A DNA stretch of 64,000 nucleotides from Candidatus Parcubacteria bacterium. GTDB lineage: Bacteria; Patescibacteriota; Minisyncoccia; UBA6257; JAGOQP01. The position numbers and the translations under genes are program-made. Position 1 is the stretch's first letter. Each line of letters starts with the position of its first letter. Shown here in pieces: positions 15,650 through 25,498 of this stretch. The DNA is taken from positions 69,386 through 133,385 of the forward strand of contig AP024682.1 in the NCBI GenBank assembly GCA_025999395.1. Direction: 5' to 3'. The notes beneath the pieces were generated by a model. It did no database searches, was not told the origin of the DNA, and saw only the letters and a program-made list of their open reading frames with translations.

Positions 15650-17911
15650 CTATCTATTCAAGATTCTTCTTAAGTTGTTAAGAATACTTCTGATAGAATA
15701 GAGAGTTCCTTGAATAGGAGAGAGAGCTCCCATTGATGGGGTAGCAGAAGCAGTGGTAAGAATCGTTGTAGTACTCTGAGGACTAAAGTCTGAGGGGAGA
15801 GGACGAGGTTGAGTTAAGGTAAGCTTAACCACATCAATTGAGGCGGGATGAATCTGAAAGATAGCAAAGGTTTTATTATCTACTTGCTGAAGGTGGGCAT
15901 CTAAGGTGTTTAGACCATAACTTTGATCACCAGCGGCGGTGACAGTTTTCTTTAATGAGTCTTTAAATTTCATAAATTCATTGGAGGTATCAGGAATAAC
16001 CTTAAGATTGTTACCTACCATTACAGAAGCTACGACCGGAGTGGTGAAACCTATTCCATATGTACTACTATGAGATTTGGTAAGATCCTTGAGCAACAAG
16101 ACTCCATTAAACGCATGAGATCCAGAAAAAGGAAGTAGGGTTATATAACTACCCAAACCATAAAAAGCTTTATCAAAGGTTTTCTGACCATAAAATTCCC
16201 TACTATCACCGCAGGTAATCCGATGATAACTTCCGGAATTAGCGCCAGCTGTTCTTCCTCCTTCTGTTTCACATAAAGTAAACCGAGAAAGATAATCAAA
16301 CTCTCCTTGTTGATTGACTTTTCTAATAATCACGCCATTACGATAACGCCACGGACCTTTTATTTTTTTAAAGAAAATGTCTGCCGCTCTAACCCCCCCA
16401 CCCGAAAGTAAAAATTCAGCATTCTGAAAATCATACATATGGGGAAAGATGTCATAAACATAACCCGTTGCTTTATCAACTTCTATTATTCCCGCATCAG
16501 CATAAATCTTTATTTTTTCTGCTTCTGAAGCGTCAGGGAAATGAGTTTGATTATTCAAGCCGCTTAGCATATCCATCCCAAGAAATTGAGGCGAGGTAGG
16601 GTTACTAAAATCAAAGACAGAAACCCAAGCTCTTTCTACCACATGAAGACGAGCAACAACGTCGTCAGTGGGAACTACCAAATAAAGTTTATTTCCAATT
16701 CTTACTGACTGAGAGGCAGACCACCTAAAAGACTTCCACTCATTATAAGCCACCTCAGAGCCGCATTTATTATTTAAATGAGGCATTTGATCGATTTCAG
16801 CAATTTTAGATGGTTTTGGATTATTAGCATCAAATCTTAACACTGCTATAGGAGCACAGCCAGGATAATATTGCTTTTCTTCATCTGGAGTTAAAGCTAA
16901 TCCGTAGACTTTTCCATCAAGGCCACTAAAAAACGTCATCAACCAGTAGCCAGTTTTATTCGAATCGCCAGCTTGAACGGCAAATTCTTCAATATTTCCT
17001 ATGCTCCAATCAGAGTTAACTTTAAAGAAATAAACGCTGCGCCTACTTTCTCCAGGGCGATATCCAACCCAATAAATGAAAGGAAGGTTATCAATTGTTA
17101 TGAATGAAGAAAGATTTGTTATACCAGAAAATATAGCTAAATATTTATTATCTTTACCTAATTCATTTTCTTTAAGAAGAGCTGGTGAGAAAGGATTAGA
17201 AATATCATAGAAAGAAACAAAGAAAGACCACTCTCCGTCTCCCTGATAACGAGCGTTGGTTATTTTAAATCTCTTATCCTGAATAACCAACAATTTCTTC
17301 CCGTAAAGACTCAAGAATCCAGTGTAGTTAATAGAAGAGTGATCTCCTTTATCACTTATATCCACCACATTTTTAACAAACTGATAGGAACCTAAAGATG
17401 AATCAACTTCTACCATTGGTGGAGCACCGGAGGGTTTTTCTGATGAAGGAATAAGCCCTTCATAGTTACGAGGATCGCTTTTCTTATAAGCTTGAAAGGT
17501 ACAGACTACTGTTTGGCCTGCTTGAATTTCAAAATCAGGGCAATTAGCTTCCTTAAAGGATCCAGAATCATAACCAGAAGGAAGAGAAACCTTTGAAGAA
17601 AGTCTATATTTTCCCGGAGATAAAGAAATTGGGCTTCCAACATCACCAGTCGCGACTTTTTTGCCGTTGTCATAAGCGCTGGTAGGTTGAGTCCAGACTT
17701 CTACTTTACCTGCCCCATTACTAGCTGGAAGGGTTTCATCTTCAACAAAGGTTGAACCCTGCCAATGACCTAATTTAACATAATGAATGAAAGTACCTCC
17801 CCCTGTTTGAGCTTTAACTGGTAAAGAAAGAAAGGGAAAGAAAAGAAGAGAAAATAAAAGAAGAAGATTAAGAGATTTTTTCATAAGAAAGATAAATTTT
17901 AATAAAATCAA
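15650..17911 (-). CDS. large secreted hypothetical protein (signal peptide; possible beta-propeller-type repeats)
   Basis: 753 aa; cleavable-looking N-terminal signal peptide; several LVIVD-like strands (LLVIQD, LYLVVPTDD); Ser/Thr-rich tail; no recognisable catalytic motif. Confidence 0.5.
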   Translation of the reverse strand: MILLKFIFLMKKSLNLLLLFSLLFFPFLSLPVKAQTGGGTFIHYVKLGHWQGSTFVEDETLPASNGAGKVEVWTQPTSAYDNGKKVATGDVGSPISLSPGKYRLSSKVSLPSGYDSGSFKEANCPDFEIQAGQTVVCTFQAYKKSDPRNYEGLIPSSEKPSGAPPMVEVDSSLGSYQFVKNVVDISDKGDHSSINYTGFLSLYGKKLLVIQDKRFKITNARYQGDGEWSFFVSFYDISNPFSPALLKENELGKDNKYLAIFSGITNLSSFITIDNLPFIYWVGYRPGESRRSVYFFKVNSDWSIGNIEEFAVQAGDSNKTGYWLMTFFSGLDGKVYGLALTPDEEKQYYPGCAPIAVLRFDANNPKPSKIAEIDQMPHLNNKCGSEVAYNEWKSFRWSASQSVRIGNKLYLVVPTDDVVARLHVVERAWVSVFDFSNPTSPQFLGMDMLSGLNNQTHFPDASEAEKIKIYADAGIIEVDKATGYVYDIFPHMYDFQNAEFLLSGGGVRAADIFFKKIKGPWRYRNGVIIRKVNQQGEFDYLSRFTLCETEGGRTAGANSGSYHRITCGDSREFYGQKTFDKAFYGLGSYITLLPFSGSHAFNGVLLLKDLTKSHSSTYGIGFTTPVVASVMVGNNLKVIPDTSNEFMKFKDSLKKTVTAAGDQSYGLNTLDAHLQQVDNKTFAIFQIHPASIDVVKLTLTQPRPLPSDFSPQSTTTILTTASATPSMGALSPIQGTLYSIRSILNNLRRILNR

Positions 17912-18117: not shown

Positions 18118-18609
18118 CTACGACTTAAGAGATTTGATTAGTTTAACAATTAAAATCACTAACAACACAAAAACTCCCAAAGGAATGCCGACAAATAAAA
18201 TCACTGCTAAAATCATCAAAAATCCCATCACCCATCCCCAGAAAGAACCAGACCAACTACCCATCATTCCTCCAACTGTTTTTCCATCGCCAATTTCACC
18301 ACAACTTGAAGACCAACCAGTCCCCATCATTGGCATCATTAAATAACCCTTATTTGATTGAAAAGATTTTCCCATAAACTCCTGTATTTTTTGGAAAAAA
18401 TCCTCTCCCATCATTTCTACCATCTCTTTTTTATAATTTTCGTAATTCTGCCCCATCATTTTCTTCATCCACACCTCCCCTACCGAACGCGGATCGCTAT
18501 TTCCTAAATCCCAGTCGCCATCCATCATATGAGCAGAAACAACTAATGGTAAAAGGAATCCGCCACTAATTATTCCCGCCACAATTAAAAGAAAAAGATT
18601 TTTTTTCAT
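18118..18609 (-). CDS. methionine-rich secreted/membrane-anchored protein (candidate Cu(I)-binding)
   Basis: 163 aa; signal peptide; mature region dense in MM, MxM and MxxM clusters (HMMDGDW, KKMMGQ, EMVEMMGE, YLMMPMMG, GGMMGS); C-terminal TM; last gene of the CopA operon. Confidence 0.6.
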   Translation of the reverse strand: MKKNLFLLIVAGIISGGFLLPLVVSAHMMDGDWDLGNSDPRSVGEVWMKKMMGQNYENYKKEMVEMMGEDFFQKIQEFMGKSFQSNKGYLMMPMMGTGWSSSCGEIGDGKTVGGMMGSWSGSFWGWVMGFLMILAVILFVGIPLGVFVLLVILIVKLIKSLKS

Positions 18610-18685: not shown

Positions 18686-20998
18686 TCATTTTTCAGAAAA
18701 TTTCAATCGTTTCAATCTAAGCGAGTTTAACACAACCGAAAGAGAAGAAAAAGCCATCGCTACCCCAGCCAAAATCGGATTCAAAAGTGGTCCGCCAAAA
18801 GGATAAAGAATACCGCTTGCTACTGGGATAAGAAGCAAATTATAAATGTAAGCCCAAAACAAATTTTGTTTTATGTTAGATAAAGTTTTTCTGGATAAAA
18901 TAATTGCCTTATAAATTCCTAAAGGATCTCCTGAAACTAAAGTAATTTGAGCTGATTCAATAGCAATATCGGTTCCTGTTCCAATAGCAATTCCTACATC
19001 AGCTTGGGTAAGAGCGGGAGCGTCATTAATTCCGTCTCCTACCATCGCCACTGTTTTTCCTTTTTCTTGAAACTCTTTAACTTTTTCAGATTTTTGTTGA
19101 GGCAAAACTGAAGCTAACACATTTTCTCTTTCTATGCCTACTTTTTGAGCGATAGCTTGAGCGGTCTGAGGACTGTCTCCAGTTATCATCCATACCTTTA
19201 TTCCTAATTTTTTTAACCTCTCAACGGTTTGAGCAGCGCTTTCTTTGAGAGTATCAGCAATTCCAATAATTCCCAACACTTGTTTTTCATCAGATAAAAT
19301 TAAAGCAGTTTTTCCCTGTTGACTAAGTTTTTCAATTTCTGATCGAAAGTGACTATTAAGAGAAACACCATTTTCTTCAATAAAGCTGCTATTTCCCAAA
19401 AGATATCTCTTGCCTTCTATATAACCTGCTAATCCTTTTCCGGTTGTTTGTTTAAAGTTATTAACCTCCAAAAGAGAAAGATTTTCTTTCTTAGCCTCTT
19501 CAACTATTGCTTTATCCAAAGGATGATTAGTGTTGACTCCCAAGCTAGCAGCAATCTGTAAAACTTTTTCTTTCGTCAAGGAGTGATTATCAGCACTGAG
19601 TTGAATTTCTGTGACAGCTGGCTGACCTTTAGTAATAGTGCCGGTTTTATCTAAAATCATTATCTCAACTCTTCCTGCTATTTCTAAAGCTTGAGCATTT
19701 CTGATAATAATTCCATTTTCTGCACCCTTACCAGTTCCAGTAATAACCGCAATCGGCGTCGCCAACCCTAAAGCACAGGGGCAAGCAACGATTAAAACCG
19801 CTACCGCATTAATTAAAGCATAGGATAATCTTGGCTCTGGACCAGTTAAAAACCAAATCCCAAAGGTAATTGCCGAAATTACCAAAACCAAGGGAACAAA
19901 AATGTTAGTAATTTTATCAGCTAATTTTTGGATAGGAGCTTTAGAGGCTTGAGCTTCTTGAACAATTTTTACGATTTGAGCCAAAAATGTTTCTTTGCCA
20001 ACTTTCTCGGCTCTCATTTTAAAGACGCCGCTTTTATTTATCGTGGCTCCAATAACTTTATCGCCCGCCTTTTTATCAACCGGGAGTGATTCACCGGTTA
20101 CCATTGATTCATCTAAAGAAGCTTGACCCTCAATAATCACTCCATCAACCGGAACCTTTTCTCCTTGTTTGACTAGCAAATAATCACCAACCTTAACTTG
20201 GTTTACATCAATGTCATGAATTTCTCCTTTTTCATCAAGACGATGAGCAATTTTTGCCTGAAGTTTCAAAAGTTTTTTAAGCGCCTCTGAGGCTGATCCT
20301 TTAGCTTTAGCTTCCAAATATTTTCCCAAGATAATAAAGGTAGTAACCACTACCGCCACATCAAAGTAAGGCTCTAGACGAGCTATAAGCGAACTACTAA
20401 ACTCAGAAATAAGATTAGCCAAAACCACTACCGTCGAAAAAAAATAAGCAGCTCCAGTACCTAAAGCTACTAGACTATCCATCCCCGGCCTTAGATTTTT
20501 CAATTCATAATACATCCCTCGCCAAAATTGCCGACCCACCCAAAATTCAACCGGCGTTGAAATTACCAAAAGAATTAGTAAAGAAAGTTTTTCAGGAATA
20601 AATTCATTCAACTTCCCTCCAAAGCTTAAAAATAGAACTATCAGCGAAGCAAAAACACCAAATGTTAATTTAATTTTCAAAACTTTCAACTCAGCCTCGT
20701 CTTCCATTTTGGCATGATCGTGTTCCTTAAGGGATTGATTAGGATGATCGGTGTGATGATTGCTGTGATCATGATGATGATAACTGATGTTTTCGCTAAC
20801 CACCTCATAACCCACCCTTTCAACGGCTTCAATTATTTTCTGATCATCTATTTCTTCACCGCATTCAACAAAAAGTTGATCTGAGGCAAAGTTAACCGAA
20901 GCACTCTTGACTCCCTCTAATTTTCTTACTGATTTTTCTATACTGGCAGCGCAGGAGGCGCAATCCATCCCCTTTATTTTAAAAATTTTCTTTATCAT
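18686..20998 (-). CDS. copA: copper-translocating P1B-type ATPase CopA
   Basis: 770 aa; N-terminal HMA domain with [13 protein letters not shown]; His-rich linker [12 protein letters not shown]; CPC in TM6; DKTGT phosphorylation site; GDGxND. Confidence 0.93.
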
Positions 20999-21017: not shown

Positions 21018-21302
21018 TTATTCATTATTTTTGCCACAAAATTTATTATGAAGCCAAGCAATTAACCAAGCAATAACATAAGTATAAACCAAAACCTCAA
21101 ACAAGCCGATAACAAATCCTTCTCCAGTAACCCGAGTAGTGACATTTAAATTAACTAAGTGCACAAGATAGCCAAAAAGCTTTAATCCTAAAGAAGGCCA
21201 GAGAGCAACGAAGACGGCGCAAAGAGTATAAATTCCTCCCATCACCAAAGCGGCTGCTTTGGCAAACCCACTTTTATGAATTTGACAAAAATGATTTTCC
21301 AT
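21018..21302 (-). CDS. small integral membrane protein, hypothetical
   Basis: 94 aa; three predicted TM helices; two Cys near the termini; embedded in the copper operon. Confidence 0.4.
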   Translation of the reverse strand: MENHFCQIHKSGFAKAAALVMGGIYTLCAVFVALWPSLGLKLFGYLVHLVNLNVTTRVTGEGFVIGLFEVLVYTYVIAWLIAWLHNKFCGKNNE

Positions 21303-21346: not shown

Positions 21347-22291
21347 TTACTTTTCAATTGTGTGGTTTTGGTGATGATGACAACAAGATTTATCCTCTCT
21401 CTTATCATTAGAAAAATCGCCAGCTTCATCTTTCCTTCTTAAAGCATTTGCAATGATAATACCAGTTCCCACAACTATTAGGGTTAAAATAAGCCACCCG
21501 CCGCCGGGGAAAACAGATAAAAATTGCTCTAGAGATTTGGTTATTTTGGCTAAATAAAGATTGATTGTCATCTGATAGCTACCTCCCCCCATTGCCAACT
21601 GATTAGTCCAATTAAGATAGAGAATTAAAATTCCTATAAAGAAATACATTAATCCCGCAATGAGCTCTGAAACCGTTAAACTAATTTCTTTACCCAAAAA
21701 AGAGTAGTTAAGTTTTTTCTTAAAAGGCAAAAATTTGGCTGTGAAATTTGTTTTATCAAGAAAATAAGCGATGATAAACAAAGGAACCACCATCCCTAAG
21801 GCGTAAACCAAAGAATAAATTCCTCCCCACAATAATGATCCGGGCAAAACCGAAAGCGCCATCACTCCTGCTAAAACCGGTGCGCAACATAAAGTAGCAA
21901 AACCCGAAAAAATTCCCAAAACAAAAATTGATCCCGCTCCCTCAACTTTCACCTCTTTCATTCTAGATTTTACCGAAAATGGCAAAGAAAGATGTTTGCC
22001 GATAAGCAAAAAAATTCCCAAAATTATCAAGAAAATCCCTCCAGCCGTGTACAACTGGCTGTGGTATTTTTGGAAAAACTGTCCAATAGCCGCTAGCCCC
22101 AAACCCAAAGGAAGAAAAACAGTCAAAATTCCTAAAAAGAAAATTGCCGTCATTAAAATAACCGTTCGTTTTTGTTTAAAAATAGAGGCCAAATAAGTCG
22201 GCAAAAGCACCGAAACACAACAAGGAGCAAAAAGAGCAGCGACGCCAGCAATAAAAGCAGTAATAAGAGAGGTGGTAATTAAAATATCCAT
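21347..22291 (-). CDS. CcdA/DsbD_2-family transmembrane thiol-disulfide (or metal-transfer) protein with Cys/His-rich tail
   Basis: 314 aa polytopic membrane protein; Cys pairs in TM helices (APCCVSV, ATLCCAPV) as in CcdA/DsbD_2; C-terminal CCHHHQNH. Confidence 0.7.
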   Translation of the reverse strand: MDILITTSLITAFIAGVAALFAPCCVSVLLPTYLASIFKQKRTVILMTAIFFLGILTVFLPLGLGLAAIGQFFQKYHSQLYTAGGIFLIILGIFLLIGKHLSLPFSVKSRMKEVKVEGAGSIFVLGIFSGFATLCCAPVLAGVMALSVLPGSLLWGGIYSLVYALGMVVPLFIIAYFLDKTNFTAKFLPFKKKLNYSFLGKEISLTVSELIAGLMYFFIGILILYLNWTNQLAMGGGSYQMTINLYLAKITKSLEQFLSVFPGGGWLILTLIVVGTGIIIANALRRKDEAGDFSNDKREDKSCCHHHQNHTIEK

Positions 22292-22298
22292 ATTAGGT

Positions 22299-22904
22299 TT
22301 AATTTAATTTGTTTATTTCTTCTGCTAATTGATCATTTCTAATAGCCATGGCAGGGTCATCTAGAAAAAATCTCACGATCCCTTCTTTATCAATTATAAA
22401 GTAGGTATGCCCCGGAAAAATTCCCGGATGCATTGAGGATTTTAAAGAAAGAACACCGTAAGCCAAAGAGACTTTTCGATCAACATCAAAGAGAATTTTG
22501 GCTTTTTTGTATTGAGGCATTTGAGCTTCAATCTTGCGCCATTGATCGGGGGTATCGACAACAATTGAAAAAGCAACAACCTGTTCGTTATTAAATCTTT
22601 CGTCGGTTCCCAATTTTTCGATCTGATTCCAACAGGCCGGATAACACATTTGCCCCTCATTGAAAAACAAAACCACCTTTTTCCCTCTTAAATCACTAAG
22701 TCTTACTATTTTTCCGTCAATATCCGGCAAGGAAAAATCGGGGGCGGCTTTTCCTAAAAGATCTTCGCCTGAAACATTTTGGAAGGATTCTTTCTTTTCA
22801 GGAGAAAGATTGCTTTTTGAATTATTGGGAAGAAAAGATAAAATGCCCACCCCAACAATAATAACAACTGCTAAATAAATTAAATTGGTTAATTTCTTAC
22901 TCAT
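22299..22904 (-). CDS. TlpA/ResA-like thioredoxin-fold thiol-disulfide oxidoreductase, membrane-anchored
   Basis: 201 aa; N-terminal TM; redoxin fold with CxxC motif (CYPAC). Confidence 0.75.
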   Translation of the reverse strand: MSKKLTNLIYLAVVIIVGVGILSFLPNNSKSNLSPEKKESFQNVSGEDLLGKAAPDFSLPDIDGKIVRLSDLRGKKVVLFFNEGQMCYPACWNQIEKLGTDERFNNEQVVAFSIVVDTPDQWRKIEAQMPQYKKAKILFDVDRKVSLAYGVLSLKSSMHPGIFPGHTYFIIDKEGIVRFFLDDPAMAIRNDQLAEEINKLN

Positions 22905-22926: not shown

Positions 22927-23877
22927 TTATAATGAACAACCACTCGCTGATTTCCTTTGAGCTGGTGCTCCCAAACTACACCCTGAAGAAGGCTGCAGCA
23001 CCGGCGCCTGAAGAGAGCAGCCGCTGGCATTAGAATTATTAGAAGAAAGGTTAAGGGTAGCTAAGGGTCTGGCCACATTTTGAGCAAATCCTTGAGCGCT
23101 AGAAAACTTAGCCGAGAGAGCTACTCGCGGATCAACTTCTGAAAGTTTTTTCTTTTCAATTAAAAGAAAGTAGTCAGCTAACTGATTGTACTGATCAGGA
23201 AACCAAACAGAATTAAACTTAAGAGCTAAGTTATAAAGCTCATCATCAGAAAGCCCTTGTGCCACTCCCAAGGATAACACTCCCAGCATCGCCATTCCGT
23301 GATTACAATCAGCGAAACGAGCGCTGTTACCACAACAAGGCCGATAGATAGTAGCAGCAATTTCGGCTACTTTCTTTTGTTGATCAAGAGTAAGGTTTAG
23401 GATATTGTGTTTGGAAAAATGATCAGAGGCAGAACCCTTAGCCACAATCCAGCCGCCGACAGAAGCTAAATTTTCTAATTGCCCTCTTTCCTTGAGAGCT
23501 TTCAACTCAACAAGATATTGATTTTCTTGAGCTAATCCCAATCCCCAAAAAAGATTAAGGAAGGTTTGATTATTATCTGGAGTAATAACAATTTCTCCTT
23601 TCTCCACCGAAAGATTTCCAACCAAATTCTGATACTTTTCCAAATCAATTGTTCCTGTCTCAATTAGTTTTTGAGGAAAATCTTGTAAATCAAGGCCGGT
23701 TTTGAAGGTGTAGGTGTTTTCAGAAACTTTTTGTAAAGTATTATTTTCATTACTTATCTTTTGATTAGAACGAGCGGATTCTTTTTGGGTAGAGTAGGAA
23801 CCCAAATAAGCAATCCCCACCATTGCTATTGCCACCAAGACTACCCCTCCTAAAAAAGTTAGTATTTTGTCTTTCAT
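22927..23877 (-). CDS. membrane-anchored Cys-rich hypothetical protein with C-terminal SGCSL repeats
   Basis: 316 aa; N-terminal TM; conserved-looking PCCGNSARFADCNHG cluster; three SGCSL repeats at the C-terminus; first structural gene after csoR. Confidence 0.5.
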   Translation of the reverse strand: MKDKILTFLGGVVLVAIAMVGIAYLGSYSTQKESARSNQKISNENNTLQKVSENTYTFKTGLDLQDFPQKLIETGTIDLEKYQNLVGNLSVEKGEIVITPDNNQTFLNLFWGLGLAQENQYLVELKALKERGQLENLASVGGWIVAKGSASDHFSKHNILNLTLDQQKKVAEIAATIYRPCCGNSARFADCNHGMAMLGVLSLGVAQGLSDDELYNLALKFNSVWFPDQYNQLADYFLLIEKKKLSEVDPRVALSAKFSSAQGFAQNVARPLATLNLSSNNSNASGCSLQAPVLQPSSGCSLGAPAQRKSASGCSL

Positions 23878-23890
23878 TTTTATTAAAAAA

Positions 23891-24163
23891 TTACTTATTA
23901 AACAATTTCACCACCTGGGAGAGTTCTTTGATCATTTTCTCGATTTGATTTTTGTTTTTTAGGTTGCGCGGATTACTAAAACAAGTTTTTAGATGATTTT
24001 CTAACATTACCTGATGAGCCGATTTTAAAAGGCCAATTGCCGCTAAATTCTGCTGCATAATCTCTACACAATAAGCATCGGTTTCAACCATCTTGATAAT
24101 TTTTTCTATTTGACCGCGAGCCTTTTTAAAAGCTACTAAAGCTAATTGTTTTTCTTTTGTCAT
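23891..24163 (-). CDS. csoR: CsoR/RcnR-family metal-sensing repressor, Cu(I)-type Cys-His-Cys fingerprint
   Basis: 90 aa all-helical; C32, H57, C61 spacing (C-x24-H-x3-C) matches Cu(I)-sensing CsoR; first gene of the copper operon. Confidence 0.85.
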   Translation of the reverse strand: MTKEKQLALVAFKKARGQIEKIIKMVETDAYCVEIMQQNLAAIGLLKSAHQVMLENHLKTCFSNPRNLKNKNQIEKMIKELSQVVKLFNK

Positions 24164-24196: not shown

Positions 24197-24211
24197 ACCT
24201 ATGGTATAGGT
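24197..24211. promoter_or_regulatory. candidate CsoR operator (6-3-6 inverted repeat ACCTAT-GGT-ATAGGT)
   Basis: Dyad symmetry ~35-50 bp upstream of the csoR start codon, inside the operon promoter region. Confidence 0.4.
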
Positions 24212-24301
24212 ATATGATAAAAAAGAAAAAATAAAAAAGCAAATGGCTTTTGTGAATAACTAAACTGGTTTAAATTTCTACTAGTTTTTTTCTACTAGTT
24301 T

Positions 24302-25498
24302 TTAAGGATTTAAGTATTCAACCTGAACATTATCTATCCACAAAGTTCCTTCTTCTCCATCGTTGCCATAGAGATATAAAGAAACATCGTGATTATTTAG
24401 TTCCCAATCAGAAGTTAAACTAAACTCTTGGGTAATTTTATTCCATTCTTTCTTTTTGGGAACTACTTTGCTAGCAAGAGCTGTATCAAAAACATAAGCA
24501 TTTTGAGAATTAGACCAATGAAGTAAACCGAATTTAGCTAATTTATTTGGGTTATCAGTTTTAGCCATAAATTTTACTCGAACTATTGTTTGAGCTTTCC
24601 AGCCATAAGTAACACCGGGAATCTGCCAAGTTTGATAAATTTCTTGAAGCCGATGAGGATAACCAAACTGAGTGTTTTTATCTATAAATTCAATGCAACC
24701 AGAATTGCCTATTCCACAATTTGGAGAAAAATGACCATGATAGCCAATCGAGGAGTTAGGAACTGAGGAAAGATAACCAGTGGAAAATCCGCGAGTCGGC
24801 TGATAACTGCCATTTAAATTTGTATCCCAGCCGGGATTATAGGAATCGGAAAGATGATTAAGATTAGTATTAACCACTATATTTCCAGAAATATCCCCCT
24901 CGAAACCATCGTCTTTTTCTTCATAAGAATAATCATTTTTGCCTCCATCGGTTGAGGTTTTATCTTTTTCTCCCCCAAGAGTATATTTATCACTTTCGAG
25001 ATTGTTGGCTGAAATATAAAAATTGTTATTGCTATCTACCGAATAAACATAATAACTTTCTGATAAATCGCTATTTATCGGATCAACGGGTAAAGAATTT
25101 CCAATCGAGGAAGATAATTTATCAAAATCAATGGGAATCCAGCCGCTACCATCGGTTTTGAGTAGGTTTTCTTCAGAAACACAGCTATACGACCATCCTA
25201 AGGGAAGCTCGGGAAGCTTTAAATTACTACAAGTAGGAGAAGAATCAGGAAGAGAAACATAAACGGTGTTAGCGGCCCCCATTGATAAATTTCGAGAACT
25301 GTATTTAGCTTTAAGAAGATTAATTTCCAAATTTTTTATATCGGAAATTCTTTTGATGTCTCGAGATTCCTTTAAAATCTCGGCTGGATTTATCATCAAA
25401 ACAGTTCCACCTCCAAGAATTGCTAAAATCCCCATCACTATTAAAAGTTCTATCAAGGTAATAGACCTCTTCTTGCCTTCTTTAATAAAAAAATTCAT
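24302..25498 (-). CDS. type IV pilin-like protein (prepilin-type N-terminal helix) with large C-terminal domain
   Basis: 398 aa; N-terminus KKRSITLIELLIVMGILAILGG resembles a class III signal/methylation motif, although position -1 is not Gly; ~350-aa Ser/Asn/Tyr-rich C-terminal domain. Confidence 0.6.
   Translation of the reverse strand: MNFFIKEGKKRSITLIELLIVMGILAILGGGTVLMINPAEILKESRDIKRISDIKNLEINLLKAKYSSRNLSMGAANTVYVSLPDSSPTCSNLKLPELPLGWSYSCVSEENLLKTDGSGWIPIDFDKLSSSIGNSLPVDPINSDLSESYYVYSVDSNNNFYISANNLESDKYTLGGEKDKTSTDGGKNDYSYEEKDDGFEGDISGNIVVNTNLNHLSDSYNPGWDTNLNGSYQPTRGFSTGYLSSVPNSSIGYHGHFSPNCGIGNSGCIEFIDKNTQFGYPHRLQEIYQTWQIPGVTYGWKAQTIVRVKFMAKTDNPNKLAKFGLLHWSNSQNAYVFDTALASKVVPKKKEWNKITQEFSLTSDWELNNHDVSLYLYGNDGEEGTLWIDNVQVEYLNP

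Follow-up and report, generated by a model that had tools for sequence, protein, structure and literature searches.

The open reading frame at 22927..23877 (minus strand) of the window, that is, of the entire stretch of 64,000 nucleotides from contig AP024682.1 of Candidatus Parcubacteria bacterium analysed here, encodes a 316-residue protein that, judging from sequence comparisons, appears to be the founding member of a large unnamed family specific for CPR. The most likely role of this protein is the handling of copper or of reducing power on the outside of the cell. In the reading that we favor, with a probability of roughly 55%, it is an outward-facing, membrane-anchored thiol protein and a core accessory of a CsoR-regulated CopA copper-stress operon, in which a CcmH-like bundle carries C-terminal arms that would shuttle cargo, likeliest Cu(I).

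The family has members in at least 584 species-level genomes and is found almost only in CPR/Patescibacteria, a group that accounts for a large share of bacterial diversity and in which most conserved proteins have no assigned function. The linkage of this family to CopA is as tight as that of classical copper chaperones elsewhere, and defining it provides the uncharacterised genes of an entire conserved island with a name and with a function that can be tested. The preliminary description, which was made from the letters of the DNA, identified the reading frame correctly and did not recognise the family; indeed, neither the single sequence nor the family profile has a match in Pfam, NCBIfam or PDB sequences. 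Specifically, the window protein yields zero Pfam matches at E<=0.1, the complete set of 113 homologs compared to Pfam at E<=10 points to no consistent family, and a search of PDB sequences with the family profile returns zero matches. Literature searches with motif strings and with the combinations Patescibacteria+copper+CsoR, DUF1573+copper and CPR+CopA+thioredoxin found nothing relevant.

The copper operon and its recurrence

The features of the operon and of the target protein are listed in the order of transcription.

24197..24256 (-): promoter-like -35 TTCACA / -10 TATTTT (24256-24228) and, further downstream, the palindrome ACCTAT-N3-ATAGGT (24211-24197) as a degenerate candidate for the CsoR operator
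23891..24163 (-): csoR, copper-sensing repressor, first gene of the operon (PF02583, E = 2e-18; fingerprint Y31-C32-H57-C61)
22927..23877 (-): target ORF, 316 aa, ATG start, membrane-anchored extracytoplasmic Cys protein (ORF list, family searches)
23800..23874 (-): transmembrane anchor at the N-terminus, residues 2-26; a disordered linker, residues 29-45, comes next (AF2, pLDDT<50 for 29-45; hydropathy)
23416..23715 (-): N-terminal globular subdomain, residues ~55-154 (invariant W111, G114, G142, W143 and an ASTGGW-type motif)
23044..23415 (-): predicted CcmH-like helical subdomain, residues 155-278
23296..23343 (-): Cys/His cluster R179-P-C181-C182-G-N184-S-x2-F-x-D190-C191-N192-H193-G194 (homolog conservation; AF2 secondary structure)
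22930..23043 (-): disordered Pro/Gln/Ser/Gly-rich C-terminal tail, residues 279-316, with three Cys arms (pLDDT<50 for 278-316; tail logo)
23011..23028 (-): arm 1, ASGCSL (C287), the counterpart in the alignment of the one arm that most homologs have
22972..22989 (-): arm 2, SSGCSL (C300) (translation, codon comparison)
22930..22947 (-): arm 3, ASGCSL-COOH (C314, third residue from the C-terminus)
22299..22904 (-): membrane-anchored thioredoxin-fold 'redoxin' (invariant C87-x3-C91 in MCYPACWNQ, H159 and H166)
21347..22291 (-): CcdA/DsbD_TM-type membrane protein (vicinal CC in TM1, APCC, and TM4, LCCAPV; cytosolic tail SCCHHHQNH)
21018..21302 (-): DUF5676 two-TM protein, a recurrent island member (Pfam, neighbourhood survey)
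18686..20998 (-): CopA-type P1B ATPase (HMA GMDCASC, His-rich stretch, CPC, YN and MAFSS motifs)
18118..18609 (-): Met-rich (11% Met) secreted or anchored protein, last gene of the operon

The gene order is csoR-target-redoxin-ccdA-DUF5676-copA-Met-rich, with gaps of 7-76 nt, and the target gene is, as originally described, the first one after csoR (13-nt gap). The operon combines a csoR gene and a gene for a Cu(I) P1B-ATPase, as expected of a cop operon, and the operator upstream is represented in the window only by a degenerate palindrome, which was read directly off the sequence and is absent from the repeat-search listing. In related loci, the canonical CsoR box TACCCC-N3-5-GGGGTA precedes 19 of the 41 csoR genes (background 0.014). 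A mercury (Mer) system was rejected on account of the lack of MerR and MerA and the Cu(I)-type motifs of the ATPase, and assignment of the regulator to the CstR-type persulfide sensors was discarded given its C-H-C fingerprint and the CsoR boxes. Nor does the neighboring redoxin appear to be a peroxiredoxin, the catalytic Thr and Arg being replaced. Both thiol partners bear soft-metal-type motifs, namely CC pairs and a CCHHH tail in CcdA, and CxxxC with two His in the redoxin; the vicinal CC of the CcdA-like partner in TM1 and TM4 recurs in 34-35 of 47. The CcdA of the window is also matched by the u259 and SfLAP HMMs.

Analysis of the genomic context shows that, in 60 of the 80 species loci, CopA is encoded on the same strand at a distance of no more than 5 kb. 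When the comparison is confined to the 45 loci whose two flanks each extend over 5 kb or more, CopA is found in 42, any copper gene in 44 and a DsbD-superfamily gene in 39. The homologs are accordingly encoded almost exclusively in copper/thiol neighborhoods, in agreement with the metal-related context anticipated from the window. The direct upstream neighbor nearly always encodes a Cys-bearing membrane protein or a Trx-like protein, usually DsbD_TM, u259 or a Cys membrane protein, and the adjoining gene is often the Trx-like u125 (YGAxWCxHCQ) or a redoxin. The seven Pfam-annotated contexts comprise DsbD_TM, redoxin and copper genes. Other conserved island genes beside the family are u131/134, DUF1573, u259, u151a/b, u165, u146/148 and DUF5676, and a YgaP-like_TM gene is present in some islands. 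The neighborhood HMMs were home-made and iterated, and some drifted (the YHS, HMA and cupredoxin models also match CopA), so that the counts for minor families are approximate.

The target domain is also found fused to HMA, cupredoxin and rhodanese domains, to the island membrane proteins u151a and u151b, and to a GCxxCG multi-TM domain, the latter in 25 of the 36 long fusion variants. These partners were uncovered only by clustering combined with home-made HMMs; when nine of the long variants were first compared to Pfam, only BNR repeats on P0208 were detected. The rhodanese fusions (PF00581, E = 1e-11 to 1e-13) form three 50%-identity clusters and account for 3 of the 148 family representatives among 150 listed.

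A CcmH-like core with an invariant Cys/His cluster

The AF2 model of the target protein has pLDDT >90 across residues 55-275, with a disordered tail, and the domain-only model reaches a pLDDT of 94. The single N-terminal transmembrane segment proposed at the outset is borne out by an AF2 helix at residues 2-26 and by hydropathy. For the N-terminal subdomain (~55-154), the structure searches gave no match. All 6 Cys residues of the protein belong to the cluster or to the tail, and likewise 200 of the 265 family members have no Cys elsewhere.

The cluster PCCGNSARFADCNHG at residues 180-194 is present as first described, although it contains three Cys (C181, C182, C191) and one His (H193) rather than four Cys and one His. 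It holds up in the conservation check: R179, C181, C182, N184, D190, C191, N192, H193 and G194 are invariant in 113 of the 113 aligned homologs, and the strict motif is found in 264 of the 268 family sequences. In the AF2 model, the cluster lies in the loop that joins two helices (164-174 and 192-206), and C191 occupies the N-cap position of the latter; the invariant polar residues R179, N184, D190 and N192 surround the Cys and His.

A structure search identifies CcmH (PDB 2HL7, 2KW0) as the only convincing structural match to the target protein, and a Foldseek search of PDB with the target model found no match (best E = 1.3). As in CcmH, the model contains a three-helix-bundle periplasmic domain with the Cys motif in the loop between helices 1 and 2. 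At the sequence level, hhalign pairs P180/C182/N184/D190/C191/N192 of the target with P26/C28/N30/D35/S36/N37 of CcmH, positions that are invariant in both families; among the Cys residues, only the second one of CcmH (C28) is aligned with a target Cys (C182), the first one being aligned with R179. The overall signal is weak (probability 1-19%, empirical P about 0.01): the full-length comparison gives E=0.045, the domain-trimmed comparison gives P=0.0013 with the probability of 19%, a score reached by 3 of 300 column-shuffled templates, and the comparisons with single CcmH sequences are not significant (E = 0.15 and 0.47). Taken at the level of the model, the C-terminal globular half of the target protein appears to resemble the core of the thiol oxidoreductase CcmH.

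This resemblance is the starting point of the principal alternative, which we consider unlikely but deserving of serious attention, namely that the protein is a pure thiol-disulfide reductase or isomerase without metal binding, acting as a terminal reductase of the CcmH-like type that CcdA and the redoxin would supply. Such an enzyme would repair non-native disulfides whose formation is catalysed by copper, or reduce one envelope partner, with the C-terminal Cys as a resolving or relay residue. The position of C191 at a helix N-cap is in line with this possibility, as is the frequent presence of u125 or redoxin next to the target gene, and the trio of CcdA, Trx-fold and CcmH-like proteins mirrors the System I relay DsbD/CcdA -> CcmG -> CcmH (PMC3884852); furthermore, copper stress is known to demand envelope disulfide repair (Scs system, PMC10907172). 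However, the canonical CxxC is absent, and a vicinal CC with a distant C-x-H is an unusual redox center and a typical soft-metal ligand set. The same direction is indicated by the fusions to HMA and cupredoxin and by the metal-type motifs of the partners (CC pairs, CCHHH tail, CxxxC with His), and many loci have no Trx-fold partner at all.

It is improbable that the cluster is purely structural, i.e., a Zn(Cys)3His site or disulfides, in a scaffold or surface adaptor that organises copper-efflux proteins. Cys3His also ranks among the classic ligand sets for structural zinc and the N-terminal subdomain, with its invariant Trp and Asn residues, could be a binding surface, but the cluster is surrounded by invariant polar residues, and a position-specific Cys arm with up to three copies under protein-level selection is hard to reconcile with a passive scaffold. 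The obligate linkage to DsbD-type thiol transporters (39 of the 45 full-flank loci) also speaks against it, given that this linkage implies that the thiols of the target protein are kept reactive.

C-terminal Cys arms and the proposed function

The three repeat copies reported for the C-terminus are all there, ASGCSLQAP, SSGCSLGAP and ASGCSL-stop. Their codons (AGC GGC TGC TCT CTT, TCA GGG TGT AGT TTG and AGT GGT TGT TCA TTA) vary at all five positions, and tandem-repeat and direct-repeat searches over the three arms detect no DNA repeat. It is therefore at the protein level that the repeat is maintained, and neither chance nor a slippage artefact explains it; a recent slippage origin was ruled out on the same grounds. 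Across the family, there are one to three arms of the form G-C-[GS]-[VAIL]. The tail Cys is located exactly at position -3 in 229 of the 252 family members, followed in these by G/S at -2 (216 of 229) and V/A/I/L at -1 (215 of 229), and positions -7 to -4 are rich in G/S. Such a strict rule is not obviously needed for simple Cu(I) chelation and hints at a partner or a processing enzyme that recognises the free C-terminus. CaaX-type prenylation with ICMT processing was considered and set aside as an explanation: an ICMT/PEMT gene adjoins in only 11 of the 80 loci, and the Cys is at -3, not -4.

The arm itself is the main reason to consider a persulfide or sulfane sulfur carrier, in which the C-terminal GGCG[VI] arm would bind sulfur covalently in the manner of SoxY, a possible purpose being the sequestration of copper in Cu-S species or the detoxification of sulfane sulfur. 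We regard this possibility as improbable. The architecture is that of the SoxY swinging arm, Gly-rich with Cys third from the end (PMC5336275), and rhodanese fusions as well as YgaP-like_TM genes fit, but these fusions are rare, the fold of the target is helical and not the SoxY beta-sandwich, the regulator has a Cu(I)-type C-H-C fingerprint accompanied by canonical CsoR boxes, and the annotated contexts contain no Sox, Dsr or persulfide dioxygenase genes. Finally, a genuine CcmH ortholog involved in cytochrome c maturation is extremely improbable, considering that the LRCxxC redox motif is absent in the family, which has an invariant R-P-C-C-G-N instead, that PF03918 (CcmH/CycL/NrfF) matches none of the 113 homologs even at E<=10, that no other ccm or ccs genes (no CcmE/F/C or ResB/C) are present in the seven Pfam-annotated contexts, and that the gene is consistently located within CsoR/CopA islands. 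As a rule, Patescibacteria lack respiratory cytochromes.

The invariant cluster, the copper/thiol context and the CcmH-like core lend contextual and structural support to the original suggestion of metal binding or thiol chemistry. In the copper-accessory reading that we favor, copper would derepress the operon via CsoR, as the motifs indicate, and CopA, by analogy with its family, would pump Cu(I) outward. The redox loop of CcmH (LRCxxC) would have been rewired into R-P-C-C-G-N-S-x2-F-x-D-C-N-H-G, which offers three thiolates and one imidazole. The obligate synteny and the fusions suggest that the CC-type CcdA-like protein and the CxxxC/His redoxin keep the target thiols reduced or feed the target directly. 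The Cys arms may then swing back and forth with their cargo and thereby connect the buried CC...C.H pocket to partners, which would be membrane Cys conduits and the redoxin and, in other genomes, cupredoxin or multicopper oxidase. The cargo would most likely be thiolate-bound Cu(I), and thiol-disulfide exchange would be a side activity that cannot be separated from it. As a counterpoint, both the CcmH-like fold and the rhodanese fusions are more indicative of sulfur or redox chemistry than of metal carriage.

A more speculative extension, for which the odds are clearly against us, is a 'metal-on-an-arm' relay common to the entire Patescibacteria lineage, in which a CcmH-derived domain would use its 1-3 Cys arms to transfer Cu(I), or else reducing equivalents, between thiol-lined conduits in the membrane and copper proteins outside the cell. 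Candidate conduits are the CcdA subfamily with vicinal CC in TM1, TM4 and the cytosolic tail together with the GCxxCG multi-TM domains, and candidate copper proteins are cupredoxin, multicopper oxidase and the Sco-like CxxxC/His redoxin; in that case, the partner with the DsbD fold might conduct Cu(I) rather than electrons. Metal homeostasis would gain a new principle if the arm carries Cu(I) or if the CC-type CcdA conducts metal. The small soluble domain is a tractable model for the handling of exported Cu(I) and for the maintenance of reduced surface thiols in cells without an outer membrane.

Comparison with known systems

With respect to the CcmH/CycL/NrfF proteins, the target would represent a reuse of the rare CcmH fold outside cytochrome maturation. 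In both, the Cys loop lies between the first two helices of the bundle (PMC3884852 for the CcmH redox loop; the AF2 model for the target). The target differs in that vicinal CC and C-x-H replace CxxC, in the additional N-terminal subdomain of ~100 residues, extra C-terminal helices and Cys-tipped disordered tail, and in being encoded in copper operons, not ccm operons, of organisms that as a rule have no c-type cytochromes.

The closest working analogs appear to be the ScsC and Sco proteins, in each of which Cu(I) binding is combined with disulfide exchange. In the Scs system, which is induced by Cu, a DsbD-like protein is paired with thiol oxidoreductases that bind Cu(I) (PMC10907172, PMC8900818). 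Like Scs (ScsB/ScsC/ScsD) and TlpA-Sco, the target system seems to be a copper-linked envelope thiol system in which a dedicated DsbD-superfamily membrane protein, found in 39 of the 45 full-flank loci, supplies a soluble or anchored Cys protein, and by this analogy Cu(I) and disulfide roles may be combined here as well. In contrast, ScsC, ScsD and Sco are thioredoxin folds with CxxC or CxxxC, whereas the target model is helical, has no thioredoxin-fold structure match and no CxxC, and carries CC...C.H and a C-terminal arm; in addition, the target operon is under CsoR, not CpxR or CueR, and the family is restricted to CPR.

Vicinal Cys pairs are also characteristic of the Mer relays (MerP/MerT/MerF), and the CC pairs that extend across the CcdA-like protein (TM1, TM4, tail) to an extracytoplasmic Cys protein are reminiscent of these; the target system differs in having no Mer homology, MerR or MerA and a Cu (CsoR/CopA) context.

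The swinging arm of SoxY has the sequence GGCGG-COOH, and other Cys-ended arms are those of DsrC, CCS domain 3 (CxC), MerA (C-terminal CC) and mammalian TrxR (GCUG). The target family shares with these proteins a flexible Gly-rich C-terminal peptide in which Cys is fixed a few residues from the free carboxylate and which can presumably enter the active sites of partners. Neither sequence nor fold relates the target to any of them, its arm being mounted on a CcmH-like helical domain; as regards SoxY, there is no Pfam SoxY match and no sox gene in the annotated contexts. The variation of the arm number from 1 to 3 parallels that in lipoyl domains. If the relay exists, it would extend to copper detoxification a type of carrier-protein logic that has been recognised until now for sulfur (SoxY) and for acyl or lipoyl groups.

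A membrane-anchored cysteine protein family of the CPR

The protein analyzed here is encoded by the following gene of the window:

22927-23877, minus strand: target ORF, 316 aa

The hydrophobic N-terminal helix noticed in the preliminary description is present according to hydropathy and the AF2 model (helix 2-26). The cluster PCCGNSARFADCNHG (residues 180-194) is present as well, but its composition, given as four Cys and one His, has to be corrected to three Cys and one His within these 15 residues. The C-terminal repeat was correctly described as triple: three copies of (A/S)SGCSL carry C287, C300 and C314, and the third forms the end of the protein. These C-terminal peptides (hereafter, arms) and the cluster account for all six Cys of the protein, three in each. 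The codons of the three copies differ at all five positions and a search across them for a DNA tandem repeat detected none, so that the repeat is kept by selection on the peptide, and slippage or chance as its source is ruled out. In the AF2 model, the tail (residues 278-316) is disordered (pLDDT<50).

The family had not been recognized from the sequence, and indeed neither the single protein nor a 113-sequence profile has a match in Pfam, NCBIfam or PDB sequences; a Pfam scan of the 113 homologs at E<=10 yields no consistent family, and a full-text literature search found this one described nowhere. It comprises 554 clusters at 90% identity (E<=1e-3) and 736 representatives at 50% identity, 288 of these with E<=1e-30, and is encoded in at least 584 species-representative genomes, with all members named “hypothetical protein” in the source records. 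Genome titles indicate Patescibacteria/CPR lineages nearly throughout (Paceibacteria/Parcubacteria groups, Saccharibacteria-labelled MAGs, Microgenomates, Gracilibacteria, Peribacteria, Doudna- and Andersenbacteria).

The cluster, whose conservation in homologs was proposed as a check, is invariant in 113 of 113 aligned members (R179, C181, C182, N184, D190, C191, N192, H193 and G194), and the strict motif CC-x-N-x5-DCNHG is found in 264 of 268 family sequences. Beyond the cluster, W111, G114, G142, W143, N222, W225, F226, Y230, G263 and the first tail Cys are invariant in the same alignment. Cysteines are confined to the cluster and the tail in 200 of 265 members, and the tail Cys is exactly third from the C-terminus in 229 of 252 complete ones; among these 229, position -2 is G/S in 216 and position -1 is V/A/I/L in 215. 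Positions -7 to -4 are Gly/Ser-rich and are preceded by a Pro/Gln-rich linker. Members of the family possess one to three flexible Cys-tipped arms, with two or more in 44 of 265. One Sungbacteria genome encodes two adjacent matches, that is, tandem paralogs (L087), and in the 603-aa protein P0208, a BNR/Asp-box repeat region C-terminal to the target domain replaces the Cys-arm end.

Resemblance to CcmH

Among thiol oxidoreductases, CcmH is unusual in not being a thioredoxin: it is a three-helix bundle in which the loop joining helices 1 and 2 holds an LRCPKC motif, and the C-terminal Cys of the motif is the exposed nucleophile (PMC3884852). In the structure model of the target, helices 164-174 and 192-206 flank the corresponding loop, which holds the cluster; C191 is the N-cap residue of helix 192-206. 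An hhalign comparison of the family profile with a 32-sequence CcmH profile places target residues 163-216 on CcmH 9-63 and pairs P180, C182, N184, D190, C191 and N192 with P26, C28, N30, D35, S36 and N37, all invariant in both families. The full-length E-value is 0.045; for the trimmed domains, P=0.0013, a score reached by 3 of 300 column-shuffled templates, with sensitivity limited by a CcmH profile of gammaproteobacterial sequences only (57-77% identity). The sequence link is weak but consistent, and the C-terminal half of the target is CcmH-like in its modelled fold, probably representing a remote CcmH homolog with a rewired active-site loop. For the N-terminal subdomain (about residues 55-154), no structural relative is detectable. 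The target is anchored and faces outward, and its invariant cluster places three thiolates and an imidazole in a CcmH-like redox loop. Assignment to PF03918, the CcmH family, was rejected (no match, no LRCxxC motif, no ccm context).

The copper operon, its counterparts and fusions

In the window, the target is the second gene of a tight minus-strand operon (gaps of 13, 22, 7, 44, 19 and 76 nt) and, as initially reported, directly follows csoR, with a 13-nt gap:

24197-24256, minus strand: csoR upstream region, promoter-like -35 TTCACA / -10 TATTTT, then palindrome ACCTAT-N3-ATAGGT
23891-24163, minus strand: csoR, operon gene 1
22299-22904, minus strand: membrane-anchored redoxin, thioredoxin fold, operon gene 3
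21347-22291, minus strand: CcdA/DsbD_TM protein, operon gene 4
21018-21302, minus strand: DUF5676, operon gene 5
18686-20998, minus strand: CopA-type P1B ATPase, operon gene 6
18118-18609, minus strand: Met-rich secreted protein, operon gene 7, directly 3' of copA

The CsoR fingerprint, Y31-C32-H57-C61, is of the Cu(I) type. The canonical box TACCCC-N3-5-GGGGTA is found in 19 of 41 csoR upstream regions of related loci (background 0.014 per 160 nt), so that the window palindrome is a candidate operator of a degenerate, AT-rich version. In an alignment of related loci, about two thirds of the CsoR homologs show Y-C-H-H instead of Y-C-H-C, a difference that could stem from misalignment or mark a variant metal site. 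The Met-rich protein (163 aa, 11% Met, MMxxM-type motifs, N-terminal signal/anchor, C-terminal TM segment) is probably a Cu(I)-binding envelope protein. The operon is flanked upstream by a gene for a 398-aa protein that combines a type IV pilin N-methylation motif with a large C-terminal domain (24302-25498, minus strand) and downstream by one for a 753-aa secreted protein (15650-17911, minus strand). The stretch separating the pilin-like gene from the csoR promoter contains a direct repeat, AAACTAGTAGAAA x2 (~24275-24300), each copy of which holds the palindrome ACTAGT.

All seven Pfam-annotated loci (homologs on long contigs) encode CsoR and/or CopA along with DsbD_TM/DsbD_2/SfLAP, redoxin/thioredoxin, DUF1573, DUF5676, cupredoxin, YHS or multicopper oxidase. 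In a census of 80 species loci, with ORFs called and searched using HMMs seeded from Pfam-labelled genes, CopA is encoded on the same strand within 5 kb of the target in 60. In the 45 loci whose two flanks each extend to 5 kb or more, CopA is present in 42 and a DsbD-superfamily gene in 39 (robust counts from best-hit assignment), DUF1573 in 30, CsoR in 26 and DUF5676 in 22, the counts for minor families being approximate owing to drift of some iterated HMMs (YHS/HMA/cupredoxin models also match CopA). At least one copper gene is found in 44 of the 45, so that the metal context of the homologs, another check suggested at the outset, holds.

The recurrent gene order is u131/u134, (DUF1573), a DsbD-like membrane protein (DsbD_TM or u259), (redoxin or a small Cys protein, namely u151a, u165 or u125), target, where the u labels denote unannotated families. 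The immediate upstream neighbor is u151a in 17 loci, u165 in 14, DsbD_TM in 10, u125 and DUF1573 in 7 each, and redoxin and u259 in 6 each; in several loci, the target directly follows DsbD_TM and a Trx-fold gene is absent. The target is almost obligately linked to CopA/CsoR and to Cys-bearing membrane proteins, of the DsbD fold or otherwise. The u259 proteins contain NPCaFS and CeFPCtGGPYL motifs, and their HMM matches the window CcdA; u125 is Trx-like, of the VKOR type (YGAxWCxHCQ). These families belong to a conserved CPR copper island (L009-L088; e.g., L003:3689-5972, L005:3279-5993, L008:7968-8860) that includes u131/u134 (2 TMs, H...C...CP...HH, ending in WLSLFE.SPS), the CcdA/SfLAP-like u259, the membrane proteins u151a (CPICAG, C-terminal NCC) and u151b/u149 (MiSCCaHYL), u165 (no predicted TM, ending in DCCDE) and the secreted u146/u148 (THS..L.D...WeG..pGGHHReG).

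Long N-terminal extensions are present in 36 of the fetched family sequences. In 25 of these (the P0148, P0149, P0160 class), the extension is a domain of about 200 aa that has several TMs and carries an intramembrane GCxxCG and a P.GLE.K signature; this domain has no Pfam match and is also a stand-alone gene in some islands (L066:7199-7753, L032:130-720, L077:17825-18379). Other fusions involve u151a (CPICAG...NCC) or u151b/u149 (SCC motif), an HMA domain before the TM anchor (one case; PF00403, E = 1e-16), a cupredoxin (one case; PF13473/PF00127) and, in three clusters, rhodanese (PF00581, E = 1e-11 to 1e-13). The target domain is physically joined to Cys-bearing membrane domains as well as to genuine copper-binding ones.

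The partners themselves are unusual. The window redoxin has its nearest match among BCP-type peroxiredoxins (2YWN, E = 7e-12), yet Tyr and His stand in it where these have the catalytic Thr and Arg; C87-x3-C91 (MCYPACWNQ), H159 and H166 are invariant in 21 of 21 homologs. With these replacements, and C-x3-C plus two His instead, it was rejected as a normal peroxiredoxin or TlpA. CxxxC with His is the Sco-type copper-ligand signature. Where canonical CcdA has single Cys, the CcdA-like subfamily (window; L010, L034, L054, L064, L065, L079) carries vicinal CC in TM1 (APCC) and TM4 (T.CCAPVLAG), in 34-35 of 47 members; its cytosolic tails often carry Cys/His, ending in SCCHHHQNH in the window and in KKSCH or CDHCKK elsewhere. 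The CC-type CcdA could be a soft-metal conduit, instead of or besides an electron conduit.

Predicted mechanism and comparison with known systems

Cluster conservation and the copper and thiol gene contexts support the original proposal of metal binding or thiol chemistry. Conservation, fold, synteny and fusions are best explained, with a probability of 0.55, by a thiol accessory of the CsoR/CopA copper operon engaged in Cu(I) transfer and/or thiol-disulfide exchange. Copper would derepress the operon via CsoR, CopA would expel Cu(I), the CcdA-type protein and the redoxin would keep the target thiols reduced or pass cargo to the target, and the arm Cys would shuttle between the cluster pocket and partners. 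The cargo may be metal or electrons, with Cu(I) favored and thiol-disulfide exchange as the coupled activity; such coupling is known for ScsC and Sco-type proteins of copper-induced envelope systems (PMC10907172, PMC8900818, PMC3322552). A more specific version, in which a carrier relay of the “metal-on-an-arm” type is joined to a DsbD-fold protein that conducts Cu(I), is only tentative.

The strict Cys at -3 is not accounted for by simple chelation, which suggests that either a processing enzyme or a pocket on a partner recognizes the free C-terminus. An ICMT/PEMT-family methyltransferase gene adjoins the target in 11 of 80 loci (L001:5380-5976, L022, L041, L065, L071 and others) and is a lead, no more, to processing of the C-x-x-COOH ending; ICMT-like genes (czcN/nccN) occur in other metal-resistance loci.

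Among the rivals, a pure CcmH-like reductase or isomerase, to be weighed with the modelled fold and the DsbD-type neighbors on one side and the HMA and cupredoxin fusions on the other, is doubtful. A structural Zn site or disulfide scaffold, given the invariant cluster but also the mobile arms, is improbable, and a sulfane-sulfur carrier, which the rhodanese fusions bring to mind amid an otherwise copper-dominated context, marginally more so. A true CcmH of cytochrome c maturation is highly improbable.

The general role thus predicted for the accessory fits already known logic. In way of working, the target is nearest to the copper-linked envelope thiol systems Scs and TlpA-Sco but has neither of their defining features, the thioredoxin fold and CxxC. 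The variation from one to three arms recalls lipoyl domains. Cys-tipped swinging arms are also found in DsrC, CCS domain 3, the MerA tail and TrxR; with SoxY, which has such an arm (PMC5336275), only the arm principle is shared. In looks, it is nearest to CcmH, from which the target differs in the absence of a PF03918 match, the LRCxxC motif and ccm context. The family, large, conserved, entirely unannotated and experimentally tractable, anchors a whole island of unnamed genes; it is unmodelled, CPR-specific and probably a case of the rare CcmH fold being put to use in copper homeostasis with a novel arrangement of its Cys.
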